Position numbers and translations under genes: made by a program. DNA of 64,000 nucleotides, from positions 1-64,000 of the forward strand of contig CM039004.1 of NCBI GenBank assembly GCA_017499595.2. Direction: 5' to 3'. The notes beneath the pieces are model-generated. The model was not told where the DNA came from and searched no databases. It saw only the letters and a program-made list of their open reading frames with translations. Positions 6,961 to 60,276 of the stretch are shown in pieces. Origin of the DNA: Psilocybe cubensis (lineage: Eukaryota). Each line of letters starts with the position of its first letter. Position 1 is the first letter of the stretch.

Positions 6961-7035
6961 AAGAATAGCCACTGAAGAGTCTATAAAGACGAAAGGGCTG
7001 GTTGTTGGGATCCCCCAACAGCCCTCTGGCCTTCT
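6961..7035 (+). ncRNA. Hammerhead ribozyme (stem III variant beta), cleavage after C7026
   Basis: CTGAAGA GTC..GAC GAAA GGGCTGGTTGTTGGGATCCCCCAACAGCCC TC TGGC. Confidence 0.9.
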
Positions 7036-16593: not shown

Positions 16594-17257
16594 TCCATTT
16601 AACTCACAGTTTAAACAAGTCGCTCGCACCTCGCTTCGCTCGGTGCTCGCTCCCCCCCTAAACCCTAAAACCTAAACCCTAAACCCTAAACCCTAAACCC
16701 TAACCTAACCCCAACCCTAAGCTAACTAAGTCTAACCTTAGTAGGAAGTAAGGTAGGCGTGTGAACTTCCGAACGGCATGTGATTGTGAAGGGCCGGATC
16801 TAATTTAGTACATGGGAAAAGTTACTTAGTACTTCGGGAAAAGTTCCTTAGTACCGTGGAAACATTTTTGATGGACCGGATCATGAACTGTCCAATTAAG
16901 ATTCACAACAATCAATCATTCTATTGTTTGATTGTTAGGTAAGGACCCAGGTAAGTTATTTATACTCTAGACATGTGAATATTCCCATGTCGCGGTTACT
17001 CGGAGCCACGTAACCAGAGTAATCTATATCCATGTGATTCACATCACAGTCAATAACCCACGATGTCAAAGAACAAAAGTGTTGGATCCACTTTTGACAG
17101 GTTACCATGTGCCACATCGACCCGTGACACTCTGTTCATCAGAGACCTGTCTAACTTGACAATAAACATTGACAGATTTGTGATAGTCGGTAAGATACAT
17201 GACAGCTGCGCAGCATCACTTCACGCGCTGTCATCGGATGTCTAGAACATTCCTTCT

Positions 17258-18262
17258 AAGAATAGCCACTGAAGAGTCTATAAAGACGAAAGGGCTGGTT
17301 GTTGGGATCCCCCAACAGCCCTCAAGTACTCGTCCTCTCCCAAACTCCTGCCGCTTGTGCCTTCCCAACTCATCCGGGAGCCCTTTCGTCACTGATCTTG
17401 CCCTTGACTCGGGGACGTTTCATCGACATGTTGGCTGCCTCACGGCAAGCGGGGCCCTTTTTCTTTCACTCGCTCACGCCTTCTATGTTGGGTTACGGAG
17501 GTCATACAAACTCGTTTTAGTCTAGCTGCGGGGATATCCAGCTATGATGACTTTGTAATTCGAGGGCGCGCAGTTCTTCAATGGGTATGGACATCAGGTG
17601 AGAGTACACTGGGGGTTGTCAGGACCAGCTCTGCTGGATACGCTCCTGGCAAGTCGGTTGCAGCCGGCGACACTACCGAATTGCTGGGACGTCCTAAAGC
17701 TTGTGGGTACCGCCGACCGCTGGAAACAGCCTAGGCACCGGTGGCGACCGGGTATGGTAACAATCCCCAAGATTCAGCGAAAGCTGGAATGGATAATCAG
17801 CAGCGAATCCGTAACGGTCACGCCGACGGAAGCGTTCAACGACTAGGTGGTAGTGGGGTCTTCGGATCTTAAGATATAGTCTTGGGAGTGGGGAAACCCA
17901 CATCTGGTATCTAAACCGCGCCTCGCTGCTTACGAGGACGGCCCGAAGTCCAGAACCGCTTAAAACGCGGGTGACCCGGCCTCCCCTTAGTAAAGGGAGT
18001 TAACACAAGGATGGACAAATAGTTCGTCGCCGGAAATGAACCTGTGGCTGTAATGGCTGATGTGGCGCCCCTTGGTAAAGGGCTTAAAGGGTATTAGCCT
18101 GCCATGTCCAATGGCATGAGAGTGTCCCTTGGTAAAGGACTTAATAGGCAATAGCCTGCTCTTTTGTCATGAGCGGTATGTAGTGATCGTTTGCCTGTAC
18201 GGTAGCGCCCATTGCTTGCACTGGTCCACGCCCGTAAAAAATCACGAGCCGCTGGCTACTTT
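17258..18262 (+). ncRNA. Hammerhead ribozyme (beta) split by a group I intron between the U and C of its cleavage triplet
   Basis: 5' part CTGAAGA...GAAAGGGCTG...CAGCCCT ends at 17322; 3' part CTGGCTACTTTCC resumes at 18252; joining them reproduces 22604-22680. Confidence 0.88.
17323..18251 (+). ncRNA. Group I self-splicing intron (IC1-like), no homing endonuclease ORF evident
   Basis: P GAATTGCTGGGA (17678-17689), Q AATCAGCAGC (17795-17804), R GTTCAACGACTAG (17834-17846), S TAAGATATAGTC (17870-17881); P3 CACTACC/GGTAGTG; P8 with UUCG loop; P9 GTGGGGAAACCCAC; 5' exon ends in U, intron ends in G; IGS GGGGTTGT (17612-17619) pairs with exon ACAGCCCT. Confidence 0.88.
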
Positions 18263-18362
18263 CCATTTAACTCCCAGTTTAAACTAGTCGCTCGCACCTC
18301 GCTTCGCTCGGTGCTCGCTCCCCCCCTAAACCCAACGACTTTGCTATTATCCATCAGCCACT

Positions 18363-21893: not shown

Positions 21894-22603
21894 AAAGAAT
21901 ACTAGCGCTTAAGGCGTAAAGCATTAGAAAAAAACCCTAACCGTAAGTATTCCTTGCTATAAAGTAACAAACATCTACTTACAAGCAACACATTGGATTG
22001 AATAGCTAAACCTAAACCTAAACCCTAAACCCTAAACCCTAAACCCTAACCTAACCCCAACCCTAAGCTAACTAAGTCTAACCTTAGTAGGAAGTAAGGT
22101 AGGCGTGTGAACTTCCGAACGGCATGTGATTGTGAAGGGCCGGATCTAATTTAGTACATGGGAAAAGTTACTTAGTACTTCGGGAAAAGTTCCTTAGTAC
22201 CGTGGAAACATTTTTGATGGACCGGATCATGAACTGTCCAATTAAGATTCACAACAATCAATCATTCTATTGTTTGATTGTTAGGTAAGGACCCAGGTAA
22301 GTTATTTATACTCTAGACATGTGAATATTCCCATGTCGCGGTTACTCGGAGCCACGTAACCAGAGTAATCTATATCCATGTGATTCACATCACAGTCAAT
22401 AACCCACGATGTCAAAGAACAAAAGTGTTGGATCCACTTTTGACAGGTTACCATGTGCCACATCGACCCGTGACACTCTGTTCATCAGAGACCTGTCTAA
22501 CTTGACAATAAACATTGACAGATTTGTGATAGTCGGTAAGATACATGACAGCTGCGCAGCATCACTTCACGCGCTGTCATCGGATGTCTAGAACATTCCT
22601 TCT

Positions 22604-22680
22604 AAGAATAGCCACTGAAGAGTCTATAAAGACGAAAGGGCTGGTTGTTGGGATCCCCCAACAGCCCTCTGGCTACTTTC
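22604..22680 (+). ncRNA. Hammerhead ribozyme (beta; intron-less allele of the interrupted copy), cleavage after C22669
   Basis: Core intact; shares the TGGCTACTTTCC flank with 18253 onward. Confidence 0.88.
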
Positions 22681-22767
22681 CATTTAACTCCCAGTTTAAA
22701 CTAGTCGCTCGCACCTCGCTTCGCTCGGTGCTCGCTCCCCCCCTAAACCCTAAACCCTAAACCCTAA

Positions 22768-31620: not shown

Positions 31621-34600
31621 CTAATCTAGCGGGTAAAACTCAAGGCCAAGAGCGGATCTATGTTTCAAGAATAGATCAGGACCTAGATTCTTGGTAAACA
31701 TATCGGCAACGTTATCAGCAGTCGGAACTGCATATAATTTGAGTGTGCCTTGCTCTATTTGTTCCCGTATGTAATGATAGCGAATCTCCACGTGCTTAAT
31801 CCCTTTTTGTGTCACGGGATTCTGCGCGTTGAATATTGCACCATGTGAGTCCGCATAGACTGGGACGTGGGAAATTGGTTTGGCCAGTTCCGCAAATAGA
31901 TTTTTAATCCATGCGCAATCTTTGGCGCAGTCGGAGAGTGCCATGTATTCACTCATAGTAGACGACGTCGAGACTAACTTCTGTGTCTGTGATTTCCACA
32001 TGACCGCAGCATTTGCCAAGCTAAAGAAGTAGCCTTGTGCAGACCGACGCTTAAGGTCGAGCTCTGATTGGTCATCTCCATAGGAGGCGTCACAATAGGC
32101 ATATAGGCCTGCGCGAGACTTCCCATCATAAACTAAGGCATATTTGCGTGTGCCAACAAGGTACCGCATAATATATTTAGCCTTGTTCATGTGGTCTTCA
32201 GATGGATTGGAAGCAAACTTTGCCATCTGAGTCACTGTATAGGCAATGTCAGGTCTAGTTCCAAGCATTAGGTAAAGCAAGGAACCAATCACTGATTGGT
32301 ACTGCGAGCGAAGTTGTGCCGAACTAGTACCATCGAACGGCATTGGGCGATAGCCCATGGGTAAGGGAGTTCTAGCAGCTTTAGCATCGCTCATGCCAAA
32401 CCGGGTTAGAACCTTCTCCAAATAGTTGGCTTGACTTAAGAGGATTTTGCCATCTTTGTAATCAATAGCCATGCGGAGAAACTCCCGTGATTCTCCGAGA
32501 TCCCGGCAATCCCACTTCTTCATAAAGAGATCTTTCTTCTGTCGTGCGAGTTCGGAGTTAGGTCCAGTGATCTGGATGTCGTCGACATAGGCAAACATTA
32601 TTGCTAACGTGCCGTCGGTATGACGTGAGATGAAGATGCCGGCGTCCGAGTATAGTCTGGTGAATCCAAGCTCTTTTAGACTTCTGTCTAGCTCGAACCA
32701 CCATGCTCGTGCGGCTTGTTTGAGCCCATAAATTGCCTTTTTAAGCCGGAGTACTTTCTTCTCCTGTCCCTTTAGAACAAAGCCCTCAGGCTGTTCCATA
32801 TATATCTCCTCGTCTAACGGCCCATAAAGGAAGGCCGATATGACGTCAAGGGACCAGACTTTCCACCTTTCGAGTGCGGCAAGGGCAAATATTGTGCGAA
32901 CACTTGGTAGCATGACCACAGGTGAGAATAACTCATCGTAGTCTAGGCCTTCTATCTGTAAGAAGCCTTTGGCTACCAGACGAGCCTTTTTCCGACCATC
33001 AGTTTTGATGTCGTAGACCCATCTGCATTTGATGGCTTTTCGGCCATTAGGGAGATCGACAAGCTCATAGACCTCTCTTTTGACAAGGACCTCTAACTCG
33101 TCTTTCATGGCTTGTCTCCATTCCTTCTGTTGGTCAGCTGGTAATTTCAGCAAATCACGCAGGGTCCAGTCACGGACATCCTTTGTGAGACCATAATCAG
33201 TAGCGCAGATGATTTCGCAGACCCGTTTGGAAAGTAATGTTGCGAAAAGACTGTTTGCTACTCCCCCTTCCGTCCCTGAATTAGGGATACCAGATTCAAC
33301 ATTGCGATTGCTACTAGATCGAGTAAGTGGCACGTAATCAGGGACGGATGCCACTCCGTGTGAAACAGTCTGCAACTTCTTACGTCGATCTTTATCGGTC
33401 GTTGTTCCGGGTCGGTAAACATTGCCTTCCCGCTCTGGTACTTTCCGAGTTCTATCCGACCTTCTGGGCGGAGGCTTGACAGGTGTATCAGGCATTTTTG
33501 GTCTTTGACCTGACGTGGGAGGTGTTACGTATCCCTGATCGTCGTCATCCTGATCATTGTCATCGTCACGAGGAGGACGTGAACTAGGCCCTGGCATAGA
33601 ACTTGGAGGACTGGCGGACCGTGGGCTCGGTTGATCGCCTGTCTCTTTCGGCAGAGGTGGCATTGGAAAGTCGTCGTTATCGGAATCGGTCGACTCACTT
33701 CCATAGCCGATTTCAAAGGAGGGTCCCTTTGGTTTTGGAGGATTAAAGCGTGTGTTGGGTGGAATCTTCCTCTTAGATTCACACTTTGGGAATAAGGTTT
33801 CATCGAATAGGGCCTTGTTCGCACGAAAGACCACATTATTCGGAGATCTCATAAAGATCATCACCGAATTAGATTCGTAGCCGAGGAATGTCATCAACTC
33901 GGAACGCGGTGATAACTTATTTTTACGCTGCTCCTTGTGTAGGTACACATAAGCTGCGCATCCCAAAGTTTTAATTTTAGACACATCAGGTAACTCCCCC
34001 TTAAGGGCCTGATGGGGTGTCTTCCACTCGATGCGTTTTACCGGAGTCCTATTGTATAGGAAGACAGCGTGGGCACAGCAAAATTGCCACCAGCTATCCG
34101 GTAGACAGGCGTAATGCCTCATCGCTTCAGACTTTTCCATAATTGTCCTGTTTAGTCTTTCAGCTCGACCATTGCTCTGATGAGCATAGGGAGCTGTAAA
34201 GCAGGCACGTGTACCGGCATTTTGTAGCCGTTCCAAGAATTCGGTACTAACGAATTCTCCGCCATTATCAAAGAAGTATTCTTTGACGGAGGTACCGTAC
34301 TGTTTTTCCACCATTTTCTCGAAAGAATTCACAGCCGCAGCGGCATCACTCTTCTTTTTAAGAAAGTAGAGCCATACGTGTGGGGTGTGGTCGTCCAAAA
34401 AGGACATGAAGTATTTACACTTCTGGTAGGAATAAACAGAAAATGTCTTGAGATCACAATGAATACGATCAAAAGGCTTCTTCGCGCGTTTGGGGTTTTC
34501 GTCATATGACTTATCAGTCATTTTACCCTTTGCGCAGCCTTCACAGACATTTTTGTCCTTGGGTACACTTATTTTGGGAAAGTTCTTAGTGGAGTCCCTA

Positions 34601-36909
34601 AAATGTCTTAGAACATCATCAGAGGGATGACCAAGACGTCGATGCCAAAGGTCACTTGCCTCTTGAAGAGTCGAAGATAACGTGCTAATGTCTTCTCCAG
34701 AGACAATGCGCGTATGCACCCAATACATTGGATGTCTGTTCGATTCAATTGAATCTGCCCTGGCTTGCAGGCCATATGATTTTTTAGGCAAATCAAAGAA
34801 CCGAAGGACTTTAGCTGTTCCTTCTATGGTCATGCCGGACGACAAGAGTTGTCCCATCGACATTAATCGGACATGTAATTGTTCCATGTATAGAACAGGA
34901 TGGAGTCGGCGGACTTCATGTCCCGGATCCTCGGAGTGGGAAACCACTTCTACGAAGACTGTTCCAAAACCGGTGATAGGCACCGTGGTAGTGGCAGTTT
35001 GCGAAATAGGTCGATTATTCTCAGCAAAGTCTTGATAACTCGCAAAATCAGACTTATCGCCAGTAAAGTGCACACTAGCACCACTGTCCATTAACCAAGC
35101 CGTTATGACTTCTTTCCCCTTTTTGGGTTTTTCAGTTCCTTTTCCTTTGCAATCTGGACAACACGCAAAATGAGATAGATATTTTTGGTATACATCATGT
35201 ACAAATGAGTAGTAAATATCTACAGGGAACTCCTCCTCCTCCGGCCGGTCGACTGTTGAGTCGTTGTCGTCTCTAGATGGGGTAGTCCCTGTGGGAATCT
35301 CAGTGTTATTTATGGTCCAATTGCTAGAACTAGAACTTACTTGCCTATCAACGAAATGGTCATCGTAGTAACCATCATAGAGATCCTCATCGTTTTCTCC
35401 GTAATCCACACGTTCCTCAATAGGAACATCAGGAGACCGTTCTCTCTGATCATCAAAGTTTGGGATATCACCCCATTGCTTTGGTTCCGGTCCGAATAGC
35501 TCATTATTAAGCTTTTCGATCTCCGGAGATGTGATCTCACCATCAACGACCATGTGATCGTCAATAGTTTCAGAGTTGACGGGCGGAGTCTTCAACCTTT
35601 CTGCGAGGGAGACATCCGAAGGAATTTGTAAGCTGCTCGTGGCAACGCTTTCCATGATCTGGAGTGCCTGCGAAGTAGGCTTTACACCAATTCTGGAAGC
35701 TAGGCTGCGTGCGGCAGCAGGAGCCGGGTATGGCGCCATGCGTGTGTCCGGATTTCTCCAGGGCCCAGCCGGAGCAGAGGTACGGGAGGAGATACTTCCT
35801 CTACCGTTGATCTCGATGATCCTTGACGTGGTGGGAGCTGGAATTGCCGGTTCGAGAACCGTCAATGTTGATGCCATAAAGACATCATCCGCTAAGGCTG
35901 TATTGCCTTGTGCACGCTGCTTGCCTTTGCCTCGTGGGGCACGCTTACGAATCCTCTTCTCCTGATTATCACCCTGAGACTGTCCCTGATTAGGGGTCTT
36001 CGAAGGATGATAGTGAGGGTGTTCCCCTTTTGGTCGGATCGCAGTATTGCGTTCAGCCGACTGTTGCGGTGCCCGGGAAGGGCCGGTCTTTGGTGCAGGC
36101 TTAGGGTCATATGTCGTACCCTTTTTAGGCTTTTGCCTGTCATCCAGATTACCAAACCGCGCTCCCCAACGATTGCGGATATCAGCGGAGATAGCCTCCA
36201 GCTTCATGTCGTCAATCTTGGTCTTGTCTCCATAATCATTAATAAGATCTTGATATATGGAGGGCGGTTGATTGGGCGATACCGCAAGGGGTAAACGTGA
36301 GAATAAGATGAGACATGCCATGGTCTCGGATACTAGATCCGCATTTTCGACCTTTTTGACATGCTCGTAGATGGCTCTGAAACGGGCCAGCTGAGGGGTA
36401 GGATCCGAAAGATCAAATTTGAAGGTGGTCAGACGTTTGAAGTCCTCCATCACTTCAACAAATTGAACTTTATCGTATTTTGCTTTCAGATCATCCCATG
36501 CCCCCTTCGCAGTCTTTCCCTTGACTGTTTCCCAAATAGATGGGATCAAGGAATTCGCGATGACACCTAGTGCCTTGGAATTCTGCTCCTTAAAATCTTT
36601 CATCGCCTTTTCAAACGACGAAGATCTTTGCGACCAGCGTTGGAATTGGATTTTCCACAGCTCAATTTGAGCTGCATTAACAGTTGTTGCCGGAGCAACG
36701 GGGGATGGGAATGCAGGCTCTCCTTCAATTGGAGAAGGGGCCACAACATCTCCAGAAATAACCCCATCAACACCAGTCAGGAGGAATATGGGAAGCATTT
36801 TGTCAGCCCATTTTCGATAGTTAGAACCATCGAATTTGGGGAATTCGGAAACAGATACGGTTGCTTTGGAAGACATTCTTAGTGCGCTTAAAGCTTGAGC
36901 CTGTGACAA
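31621..36909 (-). CDS. Copia Gag-Pol polyprotein (Gag, protease, integrase, RT, RNase H)
   Basis: FDGSNYRKW (gag), WLMDSGAS (protease), LWHRRLGH..CEGC and DNGGEF..NGRAER (integrase), KARLVAKG and YVDD (RT), IKHVEIRYHYIRE and ADMFTK (RNase H); true start codon uncertain. Confidence 0.95.
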   Translation of the reverse strand: MSQAQALSALRMSSKATVSVSEFPKFDGSNYRKWADKMLPIFLLTGVDGVISGDVVAPSPIEGEPAFPSPVAPATTVNAAQIELWKIQFQRWSQRSSSFEKAMKDFKEQNSKALGVIANSLIPSIWETVKGKTAKGAWDDLKAKYDKVQFVEVMEDFKRLTTFKFDLSDPTPQLARFRAIYEHVKKVENADLVSETMACLILFSRLPLAVSPNQPPSIYQDLINDYGDKTKIDDMKLEAISADIRNRWGARFGNLDDRQKPKKGTTYDPKPAPKTGPSRAPQQSAERNTAIRPKGEHPHYHPSKTPNQGQSQGDNQEKRIRKRAPRGKGKQRAQGNTALADDVFMASTLTVLEPAIPAPTTSRIIEINGRGSISSRTSAPAGPWRNPDTRMAPYPAPAAARSLASRIGVKPTSQALQIMESVATSSLQIPSDVSLAERLKTPPVNSETIDDHMVVDGEITSPEIEKLNNELFGPEPKQWGDIPNFDDQRERSPDVPIEERVDYGENDEDLYDGYYDDHFVDRQVSSSSSNWTINNTEIPTGTTPSRDDNDSTVDRPEEEEFPVDIYYSFVHDVYQKYLSHFACCPDCKGKGTEKPKKGKEVITAWLMDSGASVHFTGDKSDFASYQDFAENNRPISQTATTTVPITGFGTVFVEVVSHSEDPGHEVRRLHPVLYMEQLHVRLMSMGQLLSSGMTIEGTAKVLRFFDLPKKSYGLQARADSIESNRHPMYWVHTRIVSGEDISTLSSTLQEASDLWHRRLGHPSDDVLRHFRDSTKNFPKISVPKDKNVCEGCAKGKMTDKSYDENPKRAKKPFDRIHCDLKTFSVYSYQKCKYFMSFLDDHTPHVWLYFLKKKSDAAAAVNSFEKMVEKQYGTSVKEYFFDNGGEFVSTEFLERLQNAGTRACFTAPYAHQSNGRAERLNRTIMEKSEAMRHYACLPDSWWQFCCAHAVFLYNRTPVKRIEWKTPHQALKGELPDVSKIKTLGCAAYVYLHKEQRKNKLSPRSELMTFLGYESNSVMIFMRSPNNVVFRANKALFDETLFPKCESKRKIPPNTRFNPPKPKGPSFEIGYGSESTDSDNDDFPMPPLPKETGDQPSPRSASPPSSMPGPSSRPPRDDDNDQDDDDQGYVTPPTSGQRPKMPDTPVKPPPRRSDRTRKVPEREGNVYRPGTTTDKDRRKKLQTVSHGVASVPDYVPLTRSSSNRNVESGIPNSGTEGGVANSLFATLLSKRVCEIICATDYGLTKDVRDWTLRDLLKLPADQQKEWRQAMKDELEVLVKREVYELVDLPNGRKAIKCRWVYDIKTDGRKKARLVAKGFLQIEGLDYDELFSPVVMLPSVRTIFALAALERWKVWSLDVISAFLYGPLDEEIYMEQPEGFVLKGQEKKVLRLKKAIYGLKQAARAWWFELDRSLKELGFTRLYSDAGIFISRHTDGTLAIMFAYVDDIQITGPNSELARQKKDLFMKKWDCRDLGESREFLRMAIDYKDGKILLSQANYLEKVLTRFGMSDAKAARTPLPMGYRPMPFDGTSSAQLRSQYQSVIGSLLYLMLGTRPDIAYTVTQMAKFASNPSEDHMNKAKYIMRYLVGTRKYALVYDGKSRAGLYAYCDASYGDDQSELDLKRRSAQGYFFSLANAAVMWKSQTQKLVSTSSTMSEYMALSDCAKDCAWIKNLFAELAKPISHVPVYADSHGAIFNAQNPVTQKGIKHVEIRYHYIREQIEQGTLKLYAVPTADNVADMFTKNLGPDLFLKHRSALGLEFYPLD

Positions 36910-57917: not shown

Positions 57918-60276
57918 TTAGGCCCATAATTCCGTGTCACTCTGTAGTATTTAATCCTGCAGCCAAGTTTGTATCAAAAGAGCTTAAGCCGATTATTAAA
58001 TCGACTCCTTCAATCATACACGGAACGAAGGATCTCTTTACGAGATTAAGCCAATTGCGTATAGACTCCAAAAGACAATGGTATTTTGTCACTGGAGATG
58101 TAGTTGCTTTCTATCCCAATATCCCGTTGGACTTGTGCATCGAAATCGTTTGTAGTATGTACGAGGAATGGTTACTCAACACTTCGGAAGAAAACACTGC
58201 ATTAGCCCATATTAAACCAAATTCGTTAGAGAATAACTTGGTTAAATTGGGCATCTTTAAACGTACTATCGAGATTGGCAATACGCAATTGATAACACAA
58301 CATGGGTCTAGATATTTTAGACAAAAAAATGGCCTCGCAATGGGCGTCGCGGATTCTCCGGACCTTGCTAACCTCTTTGGAGCCCATTTTGAAATAAAGT
58401 CAAAAATCTTAGACCACCCAAATGTGGCCTTCTATGGAAGGTACATCGACGATTGTTTCGCAATTGTTTACGCCGAGTCCGAAGCACTTGCACTTAATTT
58501 AATTAAAGAAACAATAAAGTTCGATGGTTGTGTTATTGAATGGGCTGTTTCCTCGTCGGGATGTCAATTTCTCGATGCTTTCATATTCAAGGAGTCTGGA
58601 AAACTTCATTGGAAGCCTTTTGTCAAGACAGGAAACAACCGAGAACGAGTTCCATGGGTATCACATCATCCTTTGGACGTCAAACGTGGCGTCTACATTG
58701 GAGAGTTATCCAGGTTAGCCGTGCTATGTAGTACCAAGGAAATCTACATTGGAGCAATTAGAGACCTTAACGCTCTCTATTTGATGCGCGGTTATCCCGA
58801 AAACCTAGTCATGTCTTGGTGTAAGAAGAATATACAAGAACGTTGGGAAAAGCGATTCGCTTTACGAGTCGCAGAGCACGACGAATCCATTCTTGTACTT
58901 AAAACCAGGTTTGATCAGGTATGGAATTGGTTTTCAGCTGCTGAACTTGGAAAAACTGTTACCGAGTACTGGTCGGCATGGTATGAACATGCCGAGAAAG
59001 GTCTGTATAGTGCAGACTCGTCCAGACCCCTTATCAAACCAGATCCAAATTACGTTCACGACCTTGATGATGTTCGCCCGGAGCTGTTCACACAGATCCT
59101 CGTGAACGGAGAAACTGAGTTCGTACCGGATTTGAGGAAGATAGGACTACTCGGAAGTCGTTGGATAGTATCGCGAAAGCGCAATACTAATCTTTTCGAC
59201 CTTGCAAATGTGTGGAAGAAAACAGTCTTTCGTAAACTGGATGAAGACATCGCTGAAAAAGGTGGTGTTGTTCCTGAAACTCAAAACGTTAATGAAACTT
59301 ATCATTCTGCTCTAGTTGAAGCTGCTGAACAGATAAGTATCGAAAGTGATAACGAGATAATACTTCATAGACGTTCAATCTCACAAGAGAGGGAACATCC
59401 AGAATTCGGCAGAATATCCAAATCTTACAACCGATGAAAAGAATACTAGCGCGTAAGGCGTAAAGCATTAGAAAAAAACCCTAACCGTAAGTATTCCTTG
59501 CTACAAAGTAACAAACATCTACTTACAAGCAACACATTGGATTGAATAGCTAAACCTAAACCCTAAACCCTAAACCCTAAGCCCTAACCTAACCCCAACC
59601 CTAAGCTAACTAAGTCTAACCTTAGTAGGAAGTAAGGTAGGCGTGTGAACTTCCGAACGGCATGTGATTGTGAAGGGCCGGATCTAATTTAGTACATGGG
59701 AAAAGTTACTTAGTACTTCGGGAAAAGTTCCTTAGTACCGTGGAAACATTTTTGATGGACCGGATCATGAACTGTCCAATTAAGATTCACAACAATCAAT
59801 CATTTGATTGTTAGGTAAGGACCCAGTTAAGCTATTTATACTCTAGACATGTGAATATTCCCATGTCGCGGTTACTCGGAGCCACGTAACCAGAGTAATC
59901 TATATCCATGTGATTCACATCACAGTCAATAACCCACGATGTCAAAGAACAAAAGTGTTGGATCCACTTTTGACAGGCTACCATGTGCCACATCGACCCG
60001 TGACACTCTGTTCATCAGAGACCTGTCTAACTTGACAATAAACATTGACAGATTTGTGATAGTCGGTAAGATACATGACAGCTGCGCAGCATCACTTCAC
60101 GCGCTGTCATCGGATGTTCCAGAACATTCCTTCTAAGAATAGCCACTGAAGAGTCTATAAAGACGAAAGGGCTGGTTGTTGGTACCCCCCAACAGCCCTC
60201 TGGCCTTCTTTCATTTTAACTCACAGTTTAAATAGTCGCTCGCACCTCGCTTCGCTCGGTGCTCGCTCCCCCCCTA
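57918..60276 (+). mobile_element. PLE family A copy A7, 5'-truncated, internal location
   Basis: Homology starts at TTAGGCCCATAATT (RPII motif); RT frame open to 59437; 3' UTR and pLTR present; no telomeric cap at the 5' junction. Confidence 0.92.
60134..60210 (+). ncRNA. Hammerhead ribozyme (third stem III variant), cleavage after C60200
   Basis: CTGAAGA GTC..GAC GAAA GGGCTGGTTGTTGGTACCCCCCAACAGCCC TC TGGC. Confidence 0.88.

Follow-up and report, generated by a model that had tools for sequence, protein, structure and literature searches.

Exon structure hinders group I splicing, and exon context affects both the forward and the reverse reaction. A hairpin in the 5' exon of Tetrahymena pre-rRNA reportedly competes with P1 for the splice-site strand, as Woodson and Cech are said to have described in 1991. 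Passages and abstracts of published papers provide further systems for comparison. In them, all known nuclear group I introns interrupt rRNA genes (PMC3679873; PMC8395846) and reverse splicing is proposed as the mechanism of their spread (PMC1299323). Antisense extensions are described there as raising the efficiency of engineered trans-splicing group I ribozymes and as helping at poorly accessible sites (PMC6155759), and twin-ribozyme introns as carrying GIR1 inside GIR2 (PMC2219692). Endonuclease-less Penelope-like elements of the Coprina/Athena type have hammerheads beside reverse-complement telomeric repeats, according to the passages on these elements (PMC8557442; PMC13159263).

The window analysed here, a single stretch of 64 kb, holds a putative nuclear-type group I intron outside rDNA, within a hammerhead of what appears to be a telomere-associated retroelement (17323-18251). 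Among the papers listed by term searches, no title or opening of an abstract describes a group I intron in a hammerhead or in a Penelope-like element. The intron carries a 12-mer that is antisense to the hammerhead which it interrupts. We found this complementarity to be real and plausibly functional, while the mechanism suggested for it in an earlier note, in which the pairings with the exon unfold hammerhead stem III and free the splice-site strand, is borne out only in part.

The host element and its hammerheads

A 28-nt hammerhead core is present in ten exact copies in the window, all on the + strand, and the tandem units consist of hammerheads, an ORF of about 1176 aa and CCCTAAA-type repeats. 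When 7999 candidates were scored against the ORF, 184 relatives were found at E<=0.001. The best of them, a Psilocybe cubensis protein named as a reverse-transcriptase-domain protein, was 99% identical over the full length and has a precomputed PF00078 match. A Pfam scan of the ORF itself returned no family at E<=0.001. The layout fits a telomere-associated, endonuclease-less Penelope-like element of the Coprina/Athena type; tandem units, a putative RT ORF, flanking hammerheads and CCCTAAA-type repeats are seen here as in the passages on those elements (PMC8557442; PMC13159263). The locus differs from these accounts in its group I intron, which the hammerhead and Coprina passages of the same two papers do not mention. 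Elsewhere in the window, a copia-type LTR retrotransposon polyprotein of 1751 aa with RVT_2, rve and gag domains was found at 31621-36876 on the - strand.

By their stem III loops, the ten hammerheads comprise five alpha copies, four beta copies (at 6972, 11390, 17269 and 22615) and one further variant at 60146. The hammerhead core has the consensus CUGANGA ... GAAA ... UH, and such a core could be read in both the intron-bearing and the empty beta copy. The parts of these two copies, all on the + strand, are as follows.

17248-17322, + strand: 5' exon, the 5' part of a beta-type hammerhead, assigned by reading the sequence
17263-17268, + strand: stem I 5' strand, UAGCCA
17269-17275, + strand: CUGAAGA of the hammerhead core
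17276-17287, + strand: hammerhead stem II
17288-17291, + strand: GAAA of the hammerhead core
17291-17322, + strand: stem III, ending in U16.1
18252-18258, + strand: 3' exon, made up of C17 (18252) and the stem I 3' strand UGGCUA (18253-18258)
22615-22680, + strand: empty-site beta hammerhead in the 3' repeat of the intron-bearing element

Every one of the 17 pairs designated for the three stems of the empty copy is canonical. Its active fold was computed at -27.2 kcal/mol against -28.2 kcal/mol for the minimum free energy (MFE) fold. The Rfam hammerhead models stayed below their gathering scores (RAGATH-1-hammerhead, 23.0 bits against 56.3; Hammerhead_3, 19.5 bits against 48.5); the long stem III and the open stem I suit these models poorly. 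Stem III has two near-isoenergetic registers, an active one with GGGCUG/CAGCCC and a shifted 10-bp hairpin (17291-17322; 22637-22668), at -27.2 and -28.2 kcal/mol respectively in the intact copy. In the modelled structures, the two registers may represent a conformational switch of the host ribozyme. Stem I has 6 bp (UGGCUA/UAGCCA) in the intron-bearing element (18252-18258, 22669-22675); the other copies read UGGCCUU and form 4 bp.

A group I intron in the beta-type hammerhead

The beta copy at 22615 has the same flanks as the intron-bearing one but lacks the insert, and its empty-site joint at 22668|22669 sets the intron boundaries. Joints of 17322 to 18252, again corresponding to an empty site, were found in DNA contigs of sequencing runs X9 and X10. 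Positions 16741-17322 and 18252-18333 match 22087-22750 fully except for the intron, the two regions being the 5' and 3' repeats of the same element. The flanks of the intron-bearing and the empty copy are thus 100% identical over 582 nt and 82 nt. Such identity points to a very recent gain or loss of the intron, or to copying from spliced and unspliced templates. In hammerhead numbering we take the insertion site to be between U16.1 and C17.

The Rfam group I intron model RF00028 matched at 17607-17903 with 70.9 bits (gathering score 50; E 5.6e-16) and was the only Rfam family to reach its gathering score in the whole window. The internal guide sequence (IGS) GGGGUUGU (17612-17619) pairs with ACAGCCCU (17315-17322), and the resulting P1 of 8-10 bp contains the pair U17322.G17612, the U.G that marks a group I 5' splice site. 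Together with its extension, P1 forms a duplex of -23.2 kcal/mol. On sequence, folding and the Rfam core, the earlier note was correct in its assignment of the intron, the IGS and the hammerhead. The intron, which is predicted to be self-splicing, has these parts.

17323-18251, + strand: group I intron, 929 nt, last base G18251, identified by the Rfam core and bounded by the empty site
17315-17322, + strand: ACAGCCCU, the P1 5' strand, in which U17322 is the 5' splice-site U and forms U.G with G17612
17326-17331, + strand: 5' strand GUACUC of the P1 extension, with its partner GAGUAC at 17602-17607, from MFE helices
17332-17601, + strand: P1-loop (L1) insertion of about 270 nt, closed by the P1 extension and containing the antisense 12-mer
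17610-17619, + strand: internal guide sequence, the P1 3' strand, with P1 pair probabilities of 0.62-0.97
17620-17648, + strand: P2, CAGGA/UCCUG and CCAGC/GCUGG
17607-17903, + strand: catalytic core P3-P9, from the Rfam group I model
17904-18251, + strand: 3' peripheral extension with repeated hairpin modules (18069-18102 / 18126-18159; 17983-17997) and a terminal G

Within the 3' extension, 17983-18159 holds two 34-nt copies, 57 nt apart and 85% alike, and three CCCYTWGTAAAGGR units. At 17433-17468 the P1-loop insertion has a G+C-rich hairpin with a T run behind it, and the sub-threshold suhB/mmgR match that it gives (21.6 bits, gathering score 41) is probably due to chance. A homing-endonuclease remnant was also considered for the intron and rejected, as there were only stop-to-stop frames of up to 112 aa and no credible ORF.

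Intron segments complementary to the 5' exon

We confirmed the complementarity on which the earlier note was built. The intron segment AGCCCTTTCGTC (17379-17390, + strand) is the exact reverse complement of GACGAAAGGGCT (17285-17296) in the 5' exon. A second pairing that it had listed, between TCCCAAC at 17363-17369 and the exon segment GTTGGGA at 17301-17307, is likewise present, and GTTGGGA is indeed specific to the beta variant, being found only in the four beta-type hammerheads among the ten copies. The segments concerned are given below.

17285-17296, + strand: exon target of the 12-mer, comprising the stem II 3' strand GAC, the catalytic GAAA and the stem III 5' strand GGGCU
17379-17390, + strand: antisense 12-mer AGCCCUUUCGUC, a proposed exon clamp or second guide, with a duplex energy of -20.8 kcal/mol
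17363-17369, + strand: TCCCAAC, complement of 17301-17307, with a predicted pairing probability of 0-0.04
17338-17343, + strand: first UCCCAA, which is predicted to pair preferentially with exon UUGGGA (17302-17307) when P1 is engaged

Allowing at most one mismatch, the 12-mer was found at 11 places in the window, ten of them under the hammerheads on the minus strand and one, in the intron, on the + strand. As an exact match with a lone + strand copy in 64 kb, the antisense is not part of the host element. It forms the only inverted repeat of at least 10 nt in 17240-18330, and comparison of the intron with the rest of the element gave no similarity beyond the 12-mer.

The most serious alternative to a function is that the 12-mer is a chance match within a long, fast-evolving P1-loop insertion and has no consequence for splicing or mobility. 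We determined how often a complement of at least 12 nt to the 75-nt 5' part of the hammerhead arises. It was obtained in just 13 of 2000 dinucleotide shuffles of the intron, which argues against coincidence, as does the position of the match, 82 nt from a target that spans the invariant core common to all ten hammerheads. In natural sequence, such a complement occurred in 5 of 630 windows of the 64 kb (75 nt against the next 929 nt) and in 142 of 4436 windows of 120 metagenomic group I intron loci. These nulls of 0.8-3.2% favour coincidence, and so do the other 12-13-nt chance matches of the intron elsewhere in the window. Matches of 12 nt are no rarity somewhere in a stretch of 64 kb (BLAST E about 2.9); what is unusual about this one is its position beside a splice site and not its mere occurrence.

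The companion 7-mer gave no further reason to look beyond chance. Of the 2000 shuffles, 1936 had a longest match of at least 7 nt, and three separate 7-mers complementary to the exon are present in the real intron. Rates of about 0.7-3% in shuffles and natural windows make the 12-mer moderately unusual, and the 7-mer is ordinary; when patterns have been looked for freely, such a chance probability is still not to be neglected. The overall exon-intron duplex energy was also unremarkable, at -50.0 kcal/mol against -51.75 +/- 3.99 kcal/mol in 400 shuffles, 66% of which were as good or better, though this energy, from RNAduplex with unrestricted loops, is a poor measure for the antisense question.

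Predicted folding of the exon and the intron

Folding was predicted with nearest-neighbour models, which leave out tertiary structure, kinetics and proteins. In nascent transcripts ending at 17392-17600, the 12-bp exon-intron helix was predicted at p 0.96-0.97, and with the P1 strands engaged it was retained at p 0.89-0.95. The helix crosses P1 and the two together constitute a pseudoknot. A plain MFE fold of 17240-17640 gave the 12-mer helix p 0.023. We did not take this as a verdict against it because the helix and P1 cross and the model excludes pseudoknots.

The 12-mer had a strong predicted effect on P2. The stem III 5' strand of the exon (17291-17300) is complementary to the P2 5' strand (17623-17632) over 10 bp, two of them G.U. 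The P2 5' strand adjoins the IGS on its 3' side, and the exon-P2 mispair is present in the plain-fold MFE structure. With P1 engaged, the natural sequence gave P2 at 0.92 and the mispair at 0.011. In all 16 sequences with a shuffled 12-mer (two sets, of 6 and 10), the inner or mean P2 values were lower, at 0.13-0.56, and the mispair was higher, at 0.32-0.79. Control shuffles of other 12-mers in L1 left P2 at 0.49 or above in nine cases out of ten, the tenth collapsing it. The modelled effect appears fairly specific to the 12-mer, but the folding ensemble is fragile. A structural effect of this strength speaks against coincidence.

We also computed what it would cost to open the sites involved. 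In an intact hammerhead, opening requires 10.3 kcal/mol for the IGS target and 7.6 kcal/mol for the 12-mer target. In the free intron, opening the 12-mer costs 5.7 kcal/mol, an average accessibility (rank 573 of 918 windows). From these energies, the 12-mer anchor would be net favourable where P1 alone is marginal.

In the model, the splice-site strand behaved differently from what had been proposed, and its predicted structure involves one further feature.

17297-17320, + strand: shifted-register 10-bp hairpin (17297-17306 / 17311-17320), hiding most of the 5' splice-site strand, p 0.998

In the proposal of the earlier note, stem III would be unfolded by the 12-mer and the 7-mer together, ACAGCCCU would become available to the IGS, and the arrangement would reflect adaptation to the hammerhead. 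Some results favour such a course. If both helices formed, exon 17285-17307 would be sequestered and 17308-17322 left free, in a composite duplex of -34.9 kcal/mol, and when the hammerhead is in its active register, the 12-mer and stem III are in competition. In nascent transcripts, however, the shifted hairpin was predicted at p 0.998 alongside the 12-mer helix, which it coexists with and which leaves it untouched, so that the splice-site strand is not freed by the 12-mer. The 7-mer, which would have to open the hairpin, is predicted to pair at p 0-0.04 and is at chance level, UCCCAA at 17338-17343 being the preferred partner.

The computed cost of freeing the splice-site strand pointed the same way. 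It was 10.2 kcal/mol in the natural sequence and 8.8 kcal/mol on average (range 8.0-11.0, n=10) after shuffling of the 12-mer. Shuffling it thus does not raise the cost, which the 12-mer itself slightly increases; the lack of any predicted gain in splice-site accessibility also favours coincidence. Shuffling of both UCCCAA copies (n=6) gave 11.8 kcal/mol, so these motifs cut the cost by about 1.6 kcal/mol, which speaks for an opening function. As the hairpin is predicted to persist, the 7-mer to stay largely unpaired and the 12-mer not to lower the cost of freeing the strand, the opening step is unsupported, and we consider the literal form of this mechanism improbable. Given the order in which the strands are transcribed, the P1 extension would be a likelier toehold than the 12-mer for opening the splice-site hairpin.

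Comparison with other copies and loci

Words of the intron were found in 14 sequencing-run rows from 6 studies; the RNA runs contained next to none of these words. We compared four DNA runs of other organisms (X9, X10, X11 and X12). The region of the 12-mer (bin 17352-17389) was covered only in X11 and was identical there; the X11 contig, which spans 17354-17555, has one difference, at 17436. Contig depth was about 8-20 in the intron and about 1000-1600 in the hammerhead flanks, where depth is not to be read as copy number.

Five differences in the core were seen in X9 and X10, at 17688, 17846, 17864, 17867 and 17883. They fall on unpaired Rfam positions or change G.U to G-C in P8, as expected of a ribozyme that is kept functional, to judge by the sequence. 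X10 has two variants of 17466-17618, one of them with 13 substitutions and a 2-nt deletion within 17496-17559; elsewhere in the intron the difference is about 1%. For the question of coincidence, changes of this kind suggest relaxed constraint on the insertion. Coincidence is also favoured by the element repeats, which are 100% identical apart from the intron and would have left no time for adaptation in this copy.

Scanning metagenomes for an intron-core pattern turned up 120 loci, none of which was related beyond the conserved core; the best, L096, was 68.5% identical over 235 nt. None of 149 metagenomic core matches had a hammerhead-like motif within 1.5 kb. Neither the compared runs, which contain near-identical copies only, nor the 120 metagenomic loci yielded a diverged homologous intron.

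Discussion

The reading that we favour, though tentatively and as possible rather than probable, is that the 12-mer serves as an exon-binding clamp or a second guide. In the predicted course of events, it would pair with the hammerhead segment GAC-GAAA-GGGCU once transcribed. P1 would later take the stem III 3' strand while the G-rich 5' strand is already held, and because the 12-mer holds it, this G-rich exon strand would be unable to invade the complementary P2. The 12-bp helix might also tether the 5' exon. Once the intron is excised, these 12 nt would provide a strong duplex beside an IGS target that is itself hard to reach. This could favour reverse splicing into hammerhead RNAs, the product of which the host reverse transcriptase could copy. 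On the computed energies alone, extended target recognition by the 12-mer in reverse splicing, which the earlier note also suggested, is plausible. The intron was found in only one of the ten hammerheads of the window though all ten hold both targets, so targeting is not efficient.

Coincidence is nearly as likely as a clamp or second guide. By comparison, it is very improbable that the 12-mer is a relic, that is, an antisense piece of hammerhead from this or a sister element, captured in the P1 loop by recombination or template switching and now devoid of a role: the host encodes a putative reverse transcriptase, and the 12-nt and 7-nt matches follow each other as in a colinear antisense copy, with 9 nt against 4 nt between them, but neither side shows any similarity outside these two matches, and the intron minus strand gave no hammerhead-like match to Rfam at E<=10.

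A wider version of the second-guide reading, which we consider unlikely but worth stating, is that the 12-mer is a natural second guide with which a nuclear rDNA-type intron reverse-splices into hammerhead RNA, the reverse transcriptase of the element then fixing the insertion. Repeats that are identical apart from the intron would fit copying from spliced and unspliced templates. If this were true, the locus would be the first natural system in which group I reverse splicing and reverse transcription could be followed outside rDNA.

More important than the 12-mer is its setting. A nuclear group I intron here resides in a retroelement that would supply both reverse transcription and integration, which makes spread by reverse splicing, a long-debated mechanism in the passages on nuclear introns (PMC1299323), directly testable.

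With respect to nuclear group I introns of rDNA, the present intron is alike in having a core that fits the Rfam group I model and in lacking an endonuclease ORF. It differs in its host, a retrotransposon hammerhead, in its long P1-loop insertion and in its extra complement to the exon. Two ribozymes are nested in one transcript, as in the twin-ribozyme introns of the published passage (PMC2219692). There the second ribozyme lies inside the intron, whereas here the intron lies inside the hammerhead and carries an antisense to it.

The predicted 10-bp exon hairpin that holds ACAGCCCU resembles the situation in Tetrahymena. There the remedy comes from other exon (rRNA) sequences, whereas here an antisense borne by the intron would pair with the exon beside the hairpin, and the exon is itself a ribozyme. 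The engineered extended guides share with this locus a second substrate duplex that is separated from P1 by a loop, in the passages available on them (PMC6155759). In those designs the antisense is placed at the 5' end of the ribozyme, and its target in the substrate is 3' of the splice site (PMC6155759). The antisense described here is natural, and both its position in the P1 loop and its target, the 5' exon, set it apart from the engineered EGS design; the 12-mer may nevertheless work like an EGS. If so, a natural intron that carries an antisense to a structured ribozyme exon would be a case of evolution using the engineers' trick.
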